A stretch of DNA of 32,000 nucleotides from Faecalibaculum rodentium (GCF_001564455.1 NZ_CP011391.1:180001-212000), one strand, 5' to 3'. Shown: positions 11,446 through 32,000, counted from the first letter of the stretch. Translations and numbers: made by a program. The notes: generated by a model from the sequence alone, not told the origin.

Positions 11446-12705
11446 TCAAAGCAGGAAGTATTCAACGGATCTTGAATTACCTGTTCTTCCAATGATGTGA
11501 GCTGCCATCAGCTGATTCAGGAGGTTTGTGGTTTTGGAACGGGAAAAACCGCAGTGGTCTTCAATGGCCTGTCTCCCGGCAAACTTTTTTTCCATGAGAA
11601 ACAGATAAATCTTCTGCTGATCCGGACTCAGATCAGTCAGCTGATTTACAACTGGAAGCGTGACTGAAATTGTGTTTTCCGCCGCATGGAAAGACGGCTT
11701 GACGATTTCATTTTGATAGCTGTTCAGGATTCGTCTCACACCGGTACCGAAACGTTCGATCAGACCAAGCCGCAAAAACACATAGGCAATATGAGGATTG
11801 CGTGGTACGGAGTAGAAATCCTGGAAGTACAGTGTTTCGTTCATGTTTTCGGGAAATCCTCCCGGCGAAATGATTTCTATTCTGTCTTCCAGCATGGCAA
11901 TCTGGATCCGGGCATTCCCGATGGACCAGTCGCGATGAACCAGAGCATTGGCCAGTGCTTCACGGAAAGCCACCTCGGGGATACGGAGGGATACGGTCCG
12001 TTCCATCCCTTCGATGCGTTCTGAAGAGTAGAAGAGAAAGAACAGATCGCAGGCATCATTGTATATATCCAGAACAGACTGTTTTTCCAGTGTTCTTCTT
12101 GCAAGGATCTCATTGTGATCAGTTCCGAAGCGGACAATGTCTACTCCAGGGAAACTGTTTTCAGATGAAAAAAGGAGACCCGCATTGGTATATCCGTAGC
12201 TTTTATCGTAGAGATCAAAAGTGGTCATTGTATCCTTTCCCAGTGTTTCCAGACCGATTTTTTTCTGAAGCAGCTTTTCCAGTGTGGGAAAGGTCAGGTC
12301 CTCTTTCTTGCAGGGAAGCTGATCGAATGTCAGATTCCTGTCTTTCAGAATCATATCCATCAGCAAAGAGCGGTCAATGGGAACTGTGGAAGAATCGCGG
12401 CGTATATAGGCCTGGCCCTGATAAAAATAAGGAGCAAAAGGGCTTTTCGAAACTTCGAGTGTGACCGTTCTGTTACCCTCATCAACATGGATATTGAATG
12501 CTGGAACAGGGTTCAGTGAATTGTTGATTTTGTTTTCAATGCTTAAAGCGGAGCTGGTCAGATCCCTGAGACCTTTGATTTCCAGTGTATCGGTGACACC
12601 AAAAACGATTTTTCCGGTCCTGAAATTTGCGTAGGCAGAGACAGTTTTAAGGAATGAATCTGTTACTTTTTCCTTATATTCCAGAGTGTCTGATTCTCTT
12701 TCCAT
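11446..12705 (-). CDS. AlbA_2 (Schlafen-like) + HATPase_c_4 + C-terminal wHTH protein; the family is usually annotated as 'RecG-like ATP-dependent DNA helicase / putative transcriptional regulator'
   Basis: ATG 12705 is preceded by GAAGGAGAA. The N-terminus DTLEYKEK...FLKTVSAYANFRTGKIVFGV matches AlbA_2. ALANALVHRDW...IEIISPGGFP matches the HATPase_c_4 region. The tail is HTH-like. The segment is visibly AT-richer than its neighbours. The upstream part of the 480-aa ORF crosses the palindrome and was discarded. Confidence 0.85.
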   Translation of the reverse strand: MERESDTLEYKEKVTDSFLKTVSAYANFRTGKIVFGVTDTLEIKGLRDLTSSALSIENKINNSLNPVPAFNIHVDEGNRTVTLEVSKSPFAPYFYQGQAYIRRDSSTVPIDRSLLMDMILKDRNLTFDQLPCKKEDLTFPTLEKLLQKKIGLETLGKDTMTTFDLYDKSYGYTNAGLLFSSENSFPGVDIVRFGTDHNEILARRTLEKQSVLDIYNDACDLFFLFYSSERIEGMERTVSLRIPEVAFREALANALVHRDWSIGNARIQIAMLEDRIEIISPGGFPENMNETLYFQDFYSVPRNPHIAYVFLRLGLIERFGTGVRRILNSYQNEIVKPSFHAAENTISVTLPVVNQLTDLSPDQQKIYLFLMEKKFAGRQAIEDHCGFSRSKTTNLLNQLMAAHIIGRTGNSRSVEYFLL

Positions 12706-12736
12706 ACAGTATTCTCCTTCAGTAAAGTCAGTATAG

Positions 12737-12794
12737 CAGCTAATCGCGAAAAAATGGTAGCAACGTGTTGCTACCATTTTTTCGCGATTAGCTG
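12737..12794. repeat. Perfect 58-bp palindrome (28-bp arms, 2-nt centre), copy B of the flanking repeat
   Basis: CAGCTAATCGCGAAAAAATGGTAGCAAC-gt-GTTGCTACCATTTTTTCGCGATTAGCTG lies 32-89 nt upstream of the AlbA_2 start codon. The inner hairpin is flanked by A6/T6, so it has a bidirectional terminator shape. Confidence 0.9.
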
Positions 12795-12902
12795 CCATTT
12801 TCCAGCCGGACCGCCAGCGGAACCTGCCGGACGTGCCCGTCTGCCCGCTGCCAATGTTCGCTCTGGCCACAGCCCGCAGGGCTGGCATTGCCCGGAAAAC
12901 CC

Positions 12903-15271: not shown

Positions 15272-15490
15272 GAAAATAAAAAAGCGGCTGCCACAGGACG
15301 AAAGCCGCGCTTCGTGGTACCACCTGAATTCGCAGGCGTCTGCCTGCCTCGAGGAAATAACGGTTCCTGCCGTTCCGCCGTTTCTTGCGGACTGCTCCCG
15401 GGCCATGTTCACCGGGTCCCTTGCAGATCCTTTCACCGTACAGATCCTCTCTGGGGCTCAGGGCTTCGGCTACTCTTCCGTTCCACGCAT
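15272..15490 (-). promoter_or_regulatory. T-box riboswitch leader of metY-metA (probably Met-specific), including its terminator
   Basis: The minus strand carries AGAGUA, an AGAGAG bulge, a GGUGAAAG distal loop, the T-box sequence AAUUCAGGUGGUACCACG (15313-15330) and the terminator GCGGCU...AGCCGC+UUUUUU (15272-15310). A possible -10 TATAAT is at 15498-15503. Confidence 0.8.
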
Positions 15491-15561
15491 TTGGTTTATT
15501 ATAGCAGACGACAGACAGGATGGAATACCGGTTTTGGTGGACGAGAATGGAATAAAAAAGA

Positions 15562-18672: not shown

Positions 18673-20293
18673 GGCTGTCCGGGCCGCTCTTTGGATCTTT
18701 GCTGTCGCTGTTTTCCGGTTCCGGATTGTCAAAGAGAGCCGTCACATCCCCGGGCTTCGCCAGAGTGGCTTTCTTCTTCTTTCTGCTGCGCAGCCACCAG
18801 AATGCCGCAGCCGCCAGAACGATCAGGCCTGCCGCCAGCCAGCCCCAGGGAATGGACGGCGTTTCTTCTTCCATGGGCATCATTTCGCCGCCTTCCGGTG
18901 CTGTGGGTATGTTTTCCTGCACCGGCAGTGTGAGCTCGAAGGACTTCTTCACTTCTTCCCCGGCAGTGTTTTCCCAGGCTATGACAGCCTTGAAGGTGTG
19001 ATCTCCGGCTTCCTGCGGGGTCAGAATCAGGTCGATGCTGCCCGAACGCCCGGAGTCGATGTTACCCAGGTTCTGCTTTGGACTCAGAGTCGTCATGTCG
19101 CCCTCCACATAGGCCTCCAGGTTGTACACCGTGCCCTTTCCCTTGTTGTTGTAGGGAACACTCAGGGTGTATTCCTGACCTGCCACCGCCGGGGTCAGAT
19201 CCTTTGGCGCCTCCAGCTCAAACCGGTCCGGTTCCGTGACTGGGATGGCAATGCGCTCCTGTGCGGTTTTCTCCAGACGCTGGTCTCCATCCACATACTC
19301 ATAGGTGAAGCTCACTGTGCAGGAGGGTGAAGAACTCTTGTCCATGTTCAGGGCCTTCATGGGTATTTTCTGCGAACGGACAGCCCCGGCGCCCAGGTTC
19401 TCGAAGAAGAATGTGTTGCTGGAATTGGTGATGGTCAGCCCCTCTTCCGTTTCCACGCTCATGAGGATATTTTCCACAGCCAGGGATTTGGAGGTGTTCC
19501 GGAATTCGATGGAGAGATCGAATTTCTTTCCTGCCTGCACAGACTCCCCACCATAGGTGTACTTCGAAATGATGATATGCGGCGTGGCGGTCTGGATCTT
19601 CACCGGCTCCGAACCCTCGCCGCCGTAGGATCCCCCGAAGCCGCCATAGGCATCCCCGCCATCTGTTCCGGGATCGGTCTGTGTGCCGTTTTCCGGATTC
19701 TGTTCCGGGTCCTGGCGATCTGCCTCTTTCTCCGAAACTTCATAAATCCGCACATCCTTGCGGGCTGCACCGCCGGCGGTCTCCAGGGTGAAGGCAAAGT
19801 TGTCCTCCTTGCCCCGCCAGGCCACATCCTCAAAAGTCACCTCCAGACGCAGGGGCTTGTCCTGCTGTGAAGCCAGTGTGATCACCGGTGTGCCACCCTT
19901 GAAGGCATCCGACAAGCGGGTCACGGCCAGGTTTTCCGGATCTTTTCCCGGCTGTGATGGCGTGAAGGCCGAAGTCGGACGGGGAGAAGTCAGAGTCAGT
20001 TTCAGGTCGGCTCTCTGCCCCTTTTCCCAGGCATCGGACTCTTTGCCTTCAATGAAGACCCGGATATCGGAAATGCTCACAAGCCCGGCCAGGTTCTCCT
20101 TCTGATCCTGTCCGTCCGTTCCCGGATTCTTTGTGTCAGCCGGATCTGTGGCCGGTGTCTTTGTCTCTTCTGTTGTTTCGCGTTCAGGCTGCGGGTGCGC
20201 ATTCTGTGCCATGACAGGCATGACCGGAACGGCCAGCAGAGCCGCCAGCGCCAGGGCGCTCAGTCGTTTTTGTGTTCTGTATGCTGATTCCAT
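18659..20293 (-). CDS. Secreted, C-terminally membrane-anchored surface protein with Ig-like (CARDB/COG1361-like) repeats; ABC-associated
   Basis: It has a signal peptide (KRLSALALAALLAVPVMPVMAQN), acidic T/P/E/D linkers and a G/Y-rich linker. Two beta-rich modules follow (KYTYGGESVQAGKKFDLSIEFRNTS..., AVAGQEYTLSVPYNNKGKGTVYNLEAYVEG...). The C-terminus has a TM WGWLAAGLIVLAAAAFWWL followed by RSRKKKK. The domain family assignment is by eye only. Confidence 0.75.
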   Translation of the reverse strand: MESAYRTQKRLSALALAALLAVPVMPVMAQNAHPQPERETTEETKTPATDPADTKNPGTDGQDQKENLAGLVSISDIRVFIEGKESDAWEKGQRADLKLTLTSPRPTSAFTPSQPGKDPENLAVTRLSDAFKGGTPVITLASQQDKPLRLEVTFEDVAWRGKEDNFAFTLETAGGAARKDVRIYEVSEKEADRQDPEQNPENGTQTDPGTDGGDAYGGFGGSYGGEGSEPVKIQTATPHIIISKYTYGGESVQAGKKFDLSIEFRNTSKSLAVENILMSVETEEGLTITNSSNTFFFENLGAGAVRSQKIPMKALNMDKSSSPSCTVSFTYEYVDGDQRLEKTAQERIAIPVTEPDRFELEAPKDLTPAVAGQEYTLSVPYNNKGKGTVYNLEAYVEGDMTTLSPKQNLGNIDSGRSGSIDLILTPQEAGDHTFKAVIAWENTAGEEVKKSFELTLPVQENIPTAPEGGEMMPMEEETPSIPWGWLAAGLIVLAAAAFWWLRSRKKKKATLAKPGDVTALFDNPEPENSDSKDPKSGPDSHETL

Positions 20294-28119: not shown

Positions 28120-29682
28120 TCAGCCTTGGACGTCCGTCACAGACTCGATCTCCGCATCCACGACGTTTTTCTTGCGCGGATCGATCCGCTGCTCCGGCAG
28201 CCGCCGGTAGACCCTGGTCAGATACCGCAGGTGCCGCATTGTGTCTTCATTCAGCTGCCCCGGCGTCAGGCGCCACTGCCAGCTGCCAAGCTCACCGGGC
28301 TTGTTCATCCGGCTCTCGCTGCCCAGACCCAGCAGGTCCTGTACCATGACGATCGTCGTATCCGACGGAGAAGCCAGAAGCGTCGACAGCATCTTCCAGT
28401 TCAGCTTCGAGTCATCCCAGGAATCCAGATATTCCCGGACATACTCCTTGTCCTCCCGCGAGAGACCATTGAACCAGCCGTAAATCGTGTCATTGTCATG
28501 CGTTCCCGCGTAACCCACACTGTTGACAGGATAGGAAAACGGCAGATACTCCTGGCCTTCGGTTGTATTCGTAAACAGACCGAATTCCAGCACCTTCATC
28601 CCCGGATATCCGACTTCCTCCAGCATCTTCTCCACCGAAGGTGTCAGGATCCCCAGATCCTCCGCAATGATGTTCTGCTGGCCGATGGCTTTCTTCATCT
28701 CCCGGAACAGATCCGCACCCGGACCCTTGCGCCACGTTCCATGCAGGGCATTCGGTGCATCCGTCTCCACCGTATAGAACGAATCGAAGCCCCGGAAATG
28801 GTCGATCCGCAGAATGTCATACAGATTTGCCATCCGCTGGATCCGCCGGATCCACCAGTGATAGCCGGTCTTTTTGTGGTACGCCCAGTCATAGACCGGG
28901 TTGCCCCACAGCTGGCCCTCGGCGCTGAAGGCATCAGGCGGGACCGCCGCCACCACCGTGGGATTGGACTGTTCGTCCATCAGAAACAGCTCCGGGTGAC
29001 TCCAGGCATCCACAGAATCCATCGCCACATAAATCGGGATATCGCCCAGGATTTCCACATGATGGTCATTGGCGTACTGCTTCATGGCATTCCACTGCCG
29101 GAAAAACAGGAACTGGATCGCCTTGCACATATCCACTTCATTCCGGAAGCGTTCTGTCCATTCCGCGGTTTTCTTCCGGTCATAGACCTTGTACTCCTGA
29201 GGCCAGTCCCGCCACGCACTGCCGCCGTGCGCCTGCTTGATCGCCATGAACAGCGCATAGTCATCCAGCCAGTCGCGGTTGGCCATCAGAAACCGCTGAT
29301 AGTCCGCAGGCGGGTTCTGCAGCAGGCGCCATGCTGCGGTCTTCAGAATGTTCATCCGTTTGCTTGCCAGAATCGGGAAATCCACCCGGTCGGGATAGGT
29401 ATACCACTGCTCATGCTGGAATTCATGCCACTGCAGCAGGCCGTCAAACGCCAGCTGATCCAGATCGATCAGATAGGGGTTTCCCGCGAAGGTCGAATTC
29501 GAGGCATAGGGAGAATCCCCGTAGCCTGTGGGATTGATCGGCAGGATCTGCCAGATGCTCTGTCCATTCCGTTCCAGCAGATCGATGAAGTCCCGCGCCG
29601 GCTGACCCATGGACCCGATGCCATAGGGACCCGGCAGAGACGTTATGTGAAGCATTACGCCGCTTTTTCTCATGTCCGTCAC
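28120..29682 (-). CDS. malQ: 4-alpha-glucanotransferase (amylomaltase, GH77)
   Basis: GVMLHITSLPGPYGIG...DSPY...LRIDHFRGF...IIAEDLG...GTHDNDT are present. The start is GTG 29682 or ATG 29673. Confidence 0.95.
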   Translation of the reverse strand: MTDMRKSGVMLHITSLPGPYGIGSMGQPARDFIDLLERNGQSIWQILPINPTGYGDSPYASNSTFAGNPYLIDLDQLAFDGLLQWHEFQHEQWYTYPDRVDFPILASKRMNILKTAAWRLLQNPPADYQRFLMANRDWLDDYALFMAIKQAHGGSAWRDWPQEYKVYDRKKTAEWTERFRNEVDMCKAIQFLFFRQWNAMKQYANDHHVEILGDIPIYVAMDSVDAWSHPELFLMDEQSNPTVVAAVPPDAFSAEGQLWGNPVYDWAYHKKTGYHWWIRRIQRMANLYDILRIDHFRGFDSFYTVETDAPNALHGTWRKGPGADLFREMKKAIGQQNIIAEDLGILTPSVEKMLEEVGYPGMKVLEFGLFTNTTEGQEYLPFSYPVNSVGYAGTHDNDTIYGWFNGLSREDKEYVREYLDSWDDSKLNWKMLSTLLASPSDTTIVMVQDLLGLGSESRMNKPGELGSWQWRLTPGQLNEDTMRHLRYLTRVYRRLPEQRIDPRKKNVVDAEIESVTDVQG

Positions 29683-29916
29683 TCATTTCTATTCTCTATG
29701 AAAGTATTGTAAGTTTCCCGCGGCGATTGAACAGCCTCAATGAACCAGGAATTGCAAAACGGACTACAGTGTCACAGACCGCCCCTGGAATCCGCAGATG
29801 CCGATGATGGGGGAAAGGGGCGAAAAGGAGAAGAAGGGAGACTTCGATGTCCGGGATTCCATTCGGTTTTCGGGGCAGAATCATCCATCCTGTCTGTCTG
29901 TGACAAGCCACCCGCC

Positions 29917-29944
29917 TTGCAGGATGACCGTTTCCCGCTATAAT
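29917..29944 (+). promoter_or_regulatory. Sigma-70 type promoter for the MATE leader
   Basis: TTGCAG (29917-29922), a 16-nt spacer, then TATAAT (29939-29944). Confidence 0.6.
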
Positions 29945-29963
29945 GGATATCACAGCAAGACAG

Positions 29964-30049
29964 ATCCCCTGCGTCGCCGGATGCAGGACAAGGACGCCCG
30001 GGTTTCCGCCGCAGGCCATTGAAGGCAGGAACCTCAGGCGTCCTTTTTT
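29964..30049 (+). promoter_or_regulatory. Candidate riboswitch/attenuator: a small hairpin competing with an intrinsic terminator in the MATE 5' leader
   Basis: The hairpin GCGTC (29971-29975)/GACGC (29993-29997) has the loop GCCGGATGCAGGACAAG. The terminator is AGGACGCC (29991-29998)/GGCGTCCT (30037-30044) plus T6. GACGC is shared by both helices, so they are mutually exclusive. Confidence 0.45.
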
Positions 30050-30088
30050 CGGCCTGTGCCAACTGAACGCAATGGAAAGGAGACTTTC

Positions 30089-31483
30089 ATGACACACTCT
30101 GCACGCATTCACGATCCCGCCCTGAGAAACGAATTCATCCGCTACACCTCCCTGAGCATCATCGGGATCCTGGGCGTTTCCTGCTATATACTCGCCGACA
30201 CCTGGTTCATTGCCGCAGGCCTGGGCACCACCGGTCTTGCGGCCCTGAACCTGGCCATTCCCGTCTACAGCTTCCTGTGTGGCATCGGGATGATGCTCGG
30301 CATGGGCGGCTCCACCCAGTACACCCTGGCAGGAGCCAGGGACCAGACAGGAAAGAAAGACCGGATCTGGACAGACACCGTGATCCTGGGACTGGTCCTG
30401 TCCATTCCCTTTGTGCTTTTCGGAGCCTTCGGTCCCGATACCGCAGCGACGTGGCTCGGTGCCGATGCCCAGACCCTGGCAGACACCGCCATATACCTTC
30501 GCTGGCTCATGCTGTTTGCACCGGCCTTTCTGCTCAACTACATCCTTCAGGCTTTCATGCGCAACGACGGAAGCCCCCACCTCGCCACCTGGGCCCAGCT
30601 GGCCGGCAGCTTCCTGAACATCGTCCTGGACTGGTTTTTCATTTTTCCCTGCCACATGGGCATGTTCGGGGCCATTCTGGCCACAGTGCTTTCACCCGTT
30701 ACCGGGATCCTGGTCATGCTCCCGCACTTTTGGTCAAAGAGAAACACCCTGCACTTCACAAAAGGCCTGCCAGACAGTCATGTCATGAGACAGGACATTT
30801 CCCTGGGCTTTCCTTCCTTCGTGACCCAGGTCTCTGCCGGCATTGTGATGATTGTCCTCAACACCATTTTCCTGAAACTGGCCGGTAATACCGGCGTGGC
30901 GGCCTATGGTGTGATTGCCAACGTCACGTGTGTCACCACCGCGGTCTTCAACGGCATTGCCCAGGGAATGCAGCCTTTGACCAGCGCCGCCTGTGCTGCT
31001 CATGATCCCGCCCGCCAGCGGCTGTGCCTGCGCTATGCCCTGGTGACGGCGATGATATTTGCGGCAGCCGTCTGCCTGGTCACCTGGGTCTGGCCCGGTC
31101 CCATTGCGGCGGTGTTCAACAGCGAACAGGACCCCATGCTCCAGGCCATTGCCGTTCAGGGACTGGAACTGTATTTTCTCTCCACGCCCTTTGCCGGCAT
31201 CTGCATCATTCTCTCCACCTGGTTTGCCTCGGTCCACGCCCCGAAACCCGGCCAGGTGATGTCCATCGCCCGTGGATTTGTGCTGGTGATTCCCCTGGCC
31301 TATGGCATGGCTGCCCTGTTTTCCACCGCCGGCGCCTGGCTGTCCGTGCCTGTAGCTGAAGCACTTACCGCATTGCTGGGCTGGGTGCTGTACAGAAGAT
31401 ATCTTCGGTCAGCAGAAAGCGGGAATACCGGGATCTCCTGGCAGATGCCACAGAAAAACGGAAATCACTCCAGTGTGATTTGA
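30089..31483 (+). CDS. MATE family efflux transporter
   Basis: ATG 30089 is preceded by AAGGAG. The 464-aa product has 12 predicted TMs and a typical MATE N-terminus (IRYTSLSIIGILGVSCYILADTWFIAAGLGTTGLAALNLAIPVY). The antisense 319-aa ORF was rejected. Confidence 0.88.
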   Translation: MTHSARIHDPALRNEFIRYTSLSIIGILGVSCYILADTWFIAAGLGTTGLAALNLAIPVYSFLCGIGMMLGMGGSTQYTLAGARDQTGKKDRIWTDTVILGLVLSIPFVLFGAFGPDTAATWLGADAQTLADTAIYLRWLMLFAPAFLLNYILQAFMRNDGSPHLATWAQLAGSFLNIVLDWFFIFPCHMGMFGAILATVLSPVTGILVMLPHFWSKRNTLHFTKGLPDSHVMRQDISLGFPSFVTQVSAGIVMIVLNTIFLKLAGNTGVAAYGVIANVTCVTTAVFNGIAQGMQPLTSAACAAHDPARQRLCLRYALVTAMIFAAAVCLVTWVWPGPIAAVFNSEQDPMLQAIAVQGLELYFLSTPFAGICIILSTWFASVHAPKPGQVMSIARGFVLVIPLAYGMAALFSTAGAWLSVPVAEALTALLGWVLYRRYLRSAESGNTGISWQMPQKNGNHSSVI

Positions 31484-31542: not shown

Positions 31543-32000
31543 TCAGTTTTTCATGCTGTTCTGCATTTCCTGCCAGTACTGTTCAAACAGCTGTTCAGAA
31601 CTGGTAGCCTGCAGATATTCATTGGTGCGGTCCTGTTTGTCAAGCCAGGAATAAAGCTGATGAGCTCTGTTTCTTCCTTCTGTCCTGCCTTTCCTGATGC
31701 CCGCTGCTTCGCCCTTTCTGATGCCTGCTGCTTCGCCCTTTCTGATGCCTGCTGCTTCGCCGTGCTGGAATCCAGCCCGCAGAGCTGCATCCGCCTGTGC
31801 CTTGCTCAGACACGTATATGCCAGTTCCATGGTATATTCCTCCTTCGATTCAATCATCTTCAACAGTTCTTCGTCATCAATCTCCATGCCGCTCAGATAT
31901 GCCAGTCCTTTGACTGTCCACACCGGATGATGGATTTCTCCTGTATTCACAGTATACTGCCTGCCCTCCCGTTTTGCCTTGAGCAGTCCGGCGAAATATC
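31543..32000 (-). CDS. C-terminal part of an unknown protein with a 3x EAAGIRKG repeat; the 5' end lies beyond the window. It may be the tail of an Rpn/PD-(D/E)XK 'putative transposase' family protein.
   Basis: The minus frame is open to the window edge (YFAGLLKAKREGRQYTVNTGE...). The repeat-plus-helical-tail layout resembles the (E/K)G(I/R)-repeat tails I recall in Rpn-family proteins. This is a weak call. Confidence 0.4.
   Translation of the reverse strand, partial: YFAGLLKAKREGRQYTVNTGEIHHPVWTVKGLAYLSGMEIDDEELLKMIESKEEYTMELAYTCLSKAQADAALRAGFQHGEAAGIRKGEAAGIRKGEAAGIRKGRTEGRNRAHQLYSWLDKQDRTNEYLQATSSEQLFEQYWQEMQNSMKN
31689..31760. repeat. 24-bp x3 tandem repeat inside the CDS
   Basis: CCTTTCTGATGCCTGCTGCTTCGC-like units, two identical and one with 3 substitutions. 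They are in frame and encode GEAAGIRK x3. Confidence 0.9.

Follow-up and report, generated by a model that had tools for sequence, protein, structure and literature searches.

The window analysed here is a stretch of 32,000 nucleotides from Faecalibaculum rodentium, and the region of interest within it is a non-coding leader that lies immediately 5' of a MatE gene. This gene (30089-31483, + strand), presumably the one regulated by the leader, encodes a MATE family efflux transporter of the MepA/VmrA-like type, 464 aa in length, with a Pfam MatE match at E=7e-35. The best NCBIfam model for the protein is PRK09575, with a score under that model's cut-off. A full-length 464-aa homologue is 93% identical, and identity to Faecalibaculum proteins is 83-93%. 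A Shine-Dalgarno sequence, AAGGAG (30077-30082, + strand), can be read from the sequence 6 nt before the ATG at 30089 and is also present at the corresponding locus of a Faecalibaculum MAG (L001), which carries the same leader.

At its 5' end the leader is preceded by a putative sigma-70-type promoter (29917-29944, + strand), recognised by inspection as a -35 element TTGCAG (29917-29922), a 16-nt spacer and a -10 element TATAAT (29939-29944). The two hexamers and their 16-nt spacing recur in L001, where the spacer sequence itself has diverged. Transcription would start near 29951. A consensus-based promoter scanner made no call at the leader; TTGCAG agrees with TTGACA at 3 of 6 positions. The next gene in the 5' direction, a malQ-like 4-alpha-glucanotransferase gene (28120-29682), lies on the other strand and is transcribed away from the leader, so the terminator that we describe below cannot be the end of another gene, a reading that we considered and ruled out on these grounds.

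Comparison of the two Faecalibaculum loci shows where this region has been held constant. The element at 29968-30049 is 92.8% identical to its counterpart in L001, against 52-65% for the flanking non-coding DNA and 81% for the MATE coding sequence. That the riboswitch-like element is more alike than either its flanks or the gene behind it clearly points, at the level of sequence comparison, to selection acting on the leader.

The same stretch carries other recognisable elements. A T-box leader (15291-15494, - strand) matches Rfam RF00230 at 102 bits, the gathering score being 93. A group II intron on the + strand is represented by domains D1-D4 (8241-8412, 105 bits) and by the catalytic D5/D6 (10046-10120, 44 bits), so that the whole intron would measure about 1.9 kb and probably contains an ORF. 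Just downstream of the MATE gene, a 135-aa ORF (31543-31950, - strand) contains three tandem copies of GEAAGIRK. At the relative locus L001, a yjdF/azaaromatic riboswitch (536-655, - strand, 72 bits) is found about 2.3 kb upstream of the MATE gene, and no counterpart of it was detected in the window at Rfam gathering thresholds.

Predicted fold of the leader

The MFE and the centroid folds of the leader agree in consisting of a first hairpin, P1, two unpaired bases and a long interrupted hairpin (29990-30045) that leads into a U-tract, and the fold energy stands at z = -2.9 relative to shuffles. P1 (29968-29987, + strand), the candidate first half of an aptamer, is an 8-bp hairpin present in both folds, in which CCUGCGUC (29968-29975) and GAUGCAGG (29980-29987) enclose a GCCG loop (29976-29979); evaluated separately, it is assigned -14.4 kcal/mol. 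The dinucleotide AC (29988-29989, + strand) is the linker of 2 nt that stays single-stranded in the fold when P1 and the full terminator have both formed.

The long hairpin is an intrinsic terminator (29990-30049, + strand) and would serve as the expression platform. Its stem (29990-30045), which contains an 18-nt inverted repeat (I1), is divided in the fold into an outer (29990-29998 with 30037-30045), a middle (30000-30006 with 30028-30035) and an inner (30008-30010 with 30024-30026) segment, all on the + strand, and it overlaps a tract of six U residues (30044-30049); the MATE start codon follows 40 nt 3' of this tract. The inner segment is capped by the 13-nt loop GCAGGCCAUUGAA (30011-30023, + strand), the candidate second half of the aptamer, which contains A30013, G30014, G30015, C30016 and G30021, and A30027 is bulged out of the inner stem. 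By itself the terminator is predicted at -30.0 kcal/mol, and together with P1 at -44.4 kcal/mol. A terminator scanner made no call at the leader, the terminator loop being above that scanner's limit.

An earlier note on this DNA had described a riboswitch-type leader with an intrinsic terminator, and in this it is borne out by the fold, by covariation and by homology to validated RNAs. The strings on which it built are present, namely TTGCAG and TATAAT at a 16-nt spacing, AGGACGCC at 29991-29998, GGCGUCCU at 30037-30044 and the U6 at 30044-30049. Its central helix has not survived: GCGUC (29971-29975) and GACGC (29993-29997) do occur and do enclose GCCGGAUGCAGGACAAG, but the 5-bp hairpin that they could form is irrelevant, as it is absent from the MFE and centroid folds, is predicted at only -6.5 kcal/mol and competes for GCGUC with P1, which is favoured. 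The switch that the note envisaged, in which the GACGC strand is contested between this hairpin and the terminator, is likewise not sustained, since the pairing is not conserved in relatives.

We also considered an antiterminator pairing between CCUGCGUCG (29968-29976) and CGCCGCAGG (30007-30015), detected as repeat I5. It was set aside because its 3' arm falls within the covarying columns of the inner stem and the conserved loop; such a pairing is also unnecessary for the published mechanism of the riboswitch class discussed below.

Correspondence with validated guanidine-IV RNAs

The guanidine-IV riboswitch has been described as the mepA motif (Salvail et al. 2020) and as GGAM-1 (Lenkeit et al. 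2020). Salvail et al. define it by a P1 hairpin, a terminator stem with a highly conserved loop and a helix, P2, that forms between both loops, and they point out that P2 and the full terminator cannot exist at once, given how short the linker is. In their collection, MepA/MATE genes are the most frequent neighbours of the motif. In the same study a truncated Clostridium botulinum construct bound guanidine with a KD of ~64 uM, the substitutions G26U and A63U abolished binding, and a Lactobacillus brevis representative is stated, on data that the paper does not show, to have acted in the same way as that of C. botulinum. Lenkeit et al. showed guanidine binding for RNAs from Lactococcus lactis and Raoultibacter timonensis, guanidine-dependent anti-termination in vitro and an 80-fold induction in vivo. 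A single-molecule study published in eLife gives the C. botulinum sequence and mutated C30-G71, described as a kissing-loop pair.

The leader in the window can be written in the same form as these validated RNAs. The C. botulinum RNA reads AAGUUGCC-ACCG-GGUAGCUU ... UUUAUUCC-UUUAGGUCUUAGUA-GGAAUAAA, that of Lactococcus ACUCC-ACCG-GGAGU ... GCAUUUC-AGUAGGUCUGAGAA-GAAAUGU, and that of Raoultibacter timonensis UCUGCC-GCCG-GGUAGA ... CCCCUAUC-GUUAGGCCAUAGAA-GAUAGGGG; the counterpart in the window is CCUGCGUC-GCCG-GAUGCAGG ... UUUCCGCC-GCAGGCCAUUGAA-GGCAGGAA. P1 aligns to P1 of the validated RNAs and has the expected apex, an NCCG loop closed by a C-G pair and followed by G-R-U. The terminator, with its U-tract, bears in its loop the strongly conserved (G)NNAGGYCNNNGAA; this loop, which in the window lacks one nucleotide of the variable part, aligns to GUUAGGCCAUAGAA in Raoultibacter, AGUAGGUCUGAGAA in Lactococcus and UUUAGGUCUUAGUA in C. 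botulinum. The linker of 2 nt between the two hairpins is as short as the class calls for.

The loops of the two hairpins are complementary in the manner expected of P2. On the 5' side, GCC (29976-29978, + strand) can pair with GGC (30014-30016) of the terminator loop, giving G29976-C30016, C29977-G30015 and C29978-G30014, which in our alignment match A29-U72, C30-G71 and C31-G70 of C. botulinum. The validated RNAs keep the same rule, with ACCG facing AGGU and GCCG facing AGGC. When the published residue numbering is mapped onto the window by our own alignment, none of the five positions where substitutions had abolished guanidine binding is lost in the leader: G26 and A63 of C. botulinum correspond to G29979 and A30013, and Lactococcus G66, U67 and G72 correspond to G30015, C30016 and G30021 (all + strand), the U-to-C difference at C30016 being one that covaries with G29976.

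The leader departs in minor respects from its validated counterparts. Counted from the loop, the second pair of P1 is U-A in the window, in L001 and in a further relative, L010, in place of the commoner C-G; the machine-read text of the published alignment has the same U-A variant, for example in Lbr-1-1 (UCGCCGGAU). The terminator loop has 13 nt where 14 are usual, and the missing base falls in its poorly conserved 5' part. In L001 the inner stem is preserved through a register shift. Neither the U-A pair, the shorter loop, the bulged A30027 nor the register shift in L001 affects a position known to matter. In L010 (1365-1426, + strand) the terminator loop reads UUACGGCC, in which a C separates the A that is >97% conserved from the GG of the kissing helix.

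Rfam searches and covariance models

At gathering thresholds, Rfam 15 gave no match in the leader when the whole window was searched. At E<=10 over 29850-30150 the only matches were xerDC (E=0.65, 18.5 bits, gathering score 72.5) and the plant microRNA MIR1846 (E=2.7, 15.6 bits, gathering score 77.5), both of which we regard as noise, and ykkC-III was not among them. RF01763 (ykkC-III) is included in Rfam 15. The four related leaders that we searched likewise returned nothing, and two of them that are strong members by the models described next, L002 and L013 (41-51 bits), were unmatched even at E<=1. Rfam 15 appears to be without a guanidine-IV model, and since such strong members go unmatched as well, the empty result is no evidence against membership of the leader in this class.

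We built models of our own. The same leader is also found before distant MATE homologues: in L002 (a Blautia MAG, 43% identical), L010 (66%) and L013 (51%). In these relatives the first hairpin has a variable lower stem, with compensating changes, under a fixed top of GYC-GCCG-GRU, and the terminator loop follows G-N-N-A-G-G-C-C-N-U-N-G-A-A. The first covariance model, R1, was made from the three validated RNAs only, with P1 and an 8-bp inner terminator stem annotated, all pairs of which are formed in 3 of 3. Run with filters off over both strands of the whole window, it placed its best match exactly at 29968-30033, at 13.2 bits and an insignificant E=0.34; a model of three sequences is too weak to decide membership for the window alone. 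It matched L002 at 51 bits and L013 at 41 bits.

To widen the sample we scanned metagenomes with the DNA pattern CCGGRT...AGGYCWTWGAAG, generalised from the Raoultibacter RNA. Of the 120 stretches returned, most were chance matches, and twelve had P1, the terminator and a significant R1 score (26-65 bits). Genes 3' of the metagenomic members encode SMR (PF00893), PnuC-like (PF04973) or MatE proteins. For GGAM-1, Lenkeit et al. list the genes found 3' as SugE (31%), PnuC-like (25.2%) and MATE (22.6%, annotated PRK09575, COG0534). These are the same three leading classes, which confirms that R1, and R2 below, represent the published class. The pattern also hit the window itself at 11559-11625 (- strand), including a terminator-loop 13-mer, CAGGCCATTGAAG; this site is within a 480-aa ORF (11446-12888, - strand), has neither P1 nor terminator, and was rejected as a second riboswitch and counted as a chance match.

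The second model, R2, was built from 14 sequences (L002, L013 and the 12 metagenomic members), with the window, L001 and L010 excluded. It matched the window at 29968-30033 with 31.6 bits and a rough E=2.8e-7, the next best match reaching 9.1 bits; 12 of its 14 seeds were gathered by a pattern that the window also satisfies, so that the loop columns are partly pre-selected, and significance arises only after one iteration. The E-values are rough by construction. L010 and L001 were matched at 29.3 and 26.9 bits. These three thus score 27-32 bits with R2 where the other members score 58-74 bits; with seeds that all have the other P1 variant, a lower range is what R2 should give them.

The leader shared by the loci L007-L009, whose MATE protein is 61% identical to that of the window, gave no R2 match and could not be aligned to the motif. 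About 90 nt 5' of the MATE start (~1400-1500), these loci have a terminator-like hairpin, GACGCCGG...CCGGCGUC, followed by U4 and containing GCCGGAU. This leader may be a decayed riboswitch.

Covariation among relatives

Covariation was analysed on a 16-sequence alignment (A4) that had been fitted to the model. Standard pairs fill 98.5% of its pair cells; shifting the 3' partners by 1-3 columns reduces this to 37-43%. Changes on both sides are seen in 12 of the 17 pairs, and none of 500 shuffles reached the observed covariation score. The signal extends over both hairpins, with 4 of the 6 modelled P1 pairs and 7 of the 8 modelled inner-stem pairs of the terminator covarying, and it is found in the tertiary contact as well: the first P2 pair is G-C in nine members and A-U in seven, with no mismatches. 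Of the two competing helices, the 8-bp P1 and the 5-bp hairpin of the earlier note, covariation in relatives supports the former only.

Identity of the leader and alternative explanations

The anatomy of the leader, its match to the validated RNAs, the retention of the mutationally tested positions, the covariance models, the covariation, the gene context, the evidence for selection and the published literature together make it very probable that the leader (29968-30049, + strand) is a guanidine-IV riboswitch (mepA / GGAM-1) controlling a MepA-like MATE exporter. It is, as such, an ordinary member of an already described and experimentally validated class and not a new motif, as the earlier note had entertained. 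Two other parts of that note hold up: the leader is most likely an ON switch for the exporter, by analogy with the class, and guanidine is the likely ligand, a conclusion that the note reached by a partly wrong route and that we draw from class membership.

That route led through guanidine-III. The note saw a variant of ykkC-III in which a GCGUC/GACGC hairpin enclosing CCGG-N-CAGGACAAG would bind guanidine and compete with the terminator for GACGC. The complementary 5-mers exist, GACGC does belong to the terminator stem, and CCGGAUGCAGGACAAG resembles the guanidine-III core as the note gave it, yet we consider this reading very unlikely. Among all Rfam families searched over 29850-30150, ykkC-III gave no match at E<=10. 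The CCGG pseudoknot partner expected upstream is missing from the sequence, as the note itself had recognised, and control here is by termination. Formation of the 5-bp hairpin (-6.5 kcal/mol) would exclude the conserved and covarying 8-bp P1 (-14.4 kcal/mol), and both the GCGUC/GACGC pairing and CAGGACAAG are lost in L002, L010, L013 and the metagenomic members. The string in question begins with the last five bases of the P1 3' strand, runs across the 2-nt linker and ends two bases into the terminator stem; its columns are variable in relatives (UCAGAAAGAC, AGCGGAGAAC, AAGGAAUUAG and others), and the 9-mer is found twice in the window, the second time at 19856-19864 on the minus strand. The resemblance of AGGACAAG to guanidine-III thus involves non-homologous, non-conserved positions, the very outcome that the note had named as grounds for abandoning a guanidine-III-like loop.

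Two further readings accept a guanidine-IV-like fold and question what it does. One is that the fold has drifted, so that it senses another small cation or a guanidine derivative, or persists as a decayed copy in which attenuation is constitutive. In favour of this, R2 gives the window, L001 and L010 27-32 bits where the others reach 58-74, all three have the U-A pair of P1 as well as an altered terminator loop, and L007 has lost a recognisable aptamer, showing that decay occurs in this lineage. Set against this, the two loops remain complementary for kissing and every position validated by mutation is preserved, the lower scores are those expected from seeds with the other P1 variant, and the element is more conserved than coding sequence between the two Faecalibaculum genomes, which argues for function. 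The U-A variant, moreover, has a precedent in the published alignment, in Lbr-1-1, and if this name denotes Lactobacillus brevis, then its representative behaved like the C. botulinum RNA. We judge that drift has a small chance of being the right explanation. There is also a slight chance that Faecalibaculum and L010 form a subgroup that is a specificity or tuning variant of guanidine-IV, responding to another guanidino compound or over another concentration range, an idea suggested by the U-A pair under the P1 loop, the shortened or altered terminator loop and scores of about 30 bits where 58-74 is typical. If it were so, what the MATE pump of these mouse-gut Erysipelotrichaceae exports would be a compound different from free guanidine. 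Finally, attenuation might depend on the ribosome, through a leader peptide encoded by a 49-codon ORF (29943-30092), or on an unknown RNA-binding protein. Translational attenuation is common to many drug-efflux and resistance genes, which lends such a reading some general plausibility, and the ORF does overlap the leader. Its ATG, however, is located within the -10 box, so that a transcript from the conserved promoter would not include it; the ORF has no Shine-Dalgarno sequence and no Pfam match, and its start is lost in L001. The conserved nucleotides of the leader are found in two hairpin loops that covary with one another, the mark of an RNA-RNA tertiary contact and not of a coding signal, and we give this last reading almost no credence.

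Proposed mechanism and implications

As a guanidine-IV riboswitch, the leader would be expected to work as follows; that it binds guanidine, acts as an ON switch and works by kissing loops is carried over from other members of the class. Transcription would start a few bases 3' of TATAAT (29939-29944), and P1 (29968-29987) would form first, exposing its GCCG loop. The inner terminator hairpin (30003-30031) would then emerge from the polymerase, presenting the loop GCAGGCCAUUGAA (30011-30023). With guanidinium present, the two loops may dock through G29976-C30016, C29977-G30015 and C29978-G30014, with conserved neighbours forming the binding pocket. Because only 2 nt join P1 to the complete terminator, the docked state would hold the 5' strand of the outer stem (29990-29998) away from 30037-30045. 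The terminator would still be incomplete when the polymerase reaches the U-tract (30044-30049), allowing read-through into the MATE gene, whose product is presumably a guanidine exporter. In the absence of ligand, the terminator of ~19 bp would form and transcription would stop. That docked loops and full terminator are mutually exclusive in this leader is what the published guanidine-IV model predicts, and we infer that this copy is functional.

The value of the assignment lies mainly in correcting annotation. Pipelines based on Rfam miss the leader and leave the MATE gene labelled as a generic 'multidrug' pump, and scans relying on Rfam 15 would miss the guanidine-IV class systematically. 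With the riboswitch recognised, it follows that guanidine induces the pump and is probably what it exports. Export of guanidine by MATE proteins has so far only been proposed in the literature. As that hypothesis is already published, our assignment opens no new question. It does extend guanidine sensing to Faecalibaculum, a genus common in the mouse gut; by name, the genus is absent from the supplementary taxon lists of 2020.

Comparison with known guanidine riboswitches

The three guanidine riboswitch classes to which this leader can be compared differ in how much of it they account for. Guanidine-III (RF01763) folds into a compact H-type pseudoknot of ~41 nt and acts on translation and mRNA stability; most of its examples precede SMR genes in Actinobacteria. 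Our leader has in common with it guanidine as the probable ligand, regulation of an exporter and the short string CCGG..CAGGACAAG; it differs in that it has no covariance-model match and no pseudoknot partner, acts through a terminator and does not conserve the string. Guanidine-II (mini-ykkC) has two ACGR tetraloops and controls translation. The likeness here is one of principle, as guanidine-II also consists of two hairpins whose loops kiss on guanidine binding; our leader, in contrast, combines a GCCG loop with a 13-nt loop that forms part of a terminator, and it has no match in Rfam. The analogy between guanidine-IV and guanidine-II is one that Lenkeit et al. themselves draw.

With guanidine-IV the likeness extends to the details. 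Apart from such minor differences as the U-A second P1 pair, the 13-nt terminator loop and the bulged A30027, the leader shares with this class a P1 whose NCCG loop is closed by C-G, a terminator loop carrying ..AGGYC..GAA, and a 3-bp kissing helix P2 between the loops that shows R-Y covariation, and it is placed directly 5' of a MepA-like MATE gene in a Firmicutes-type host.
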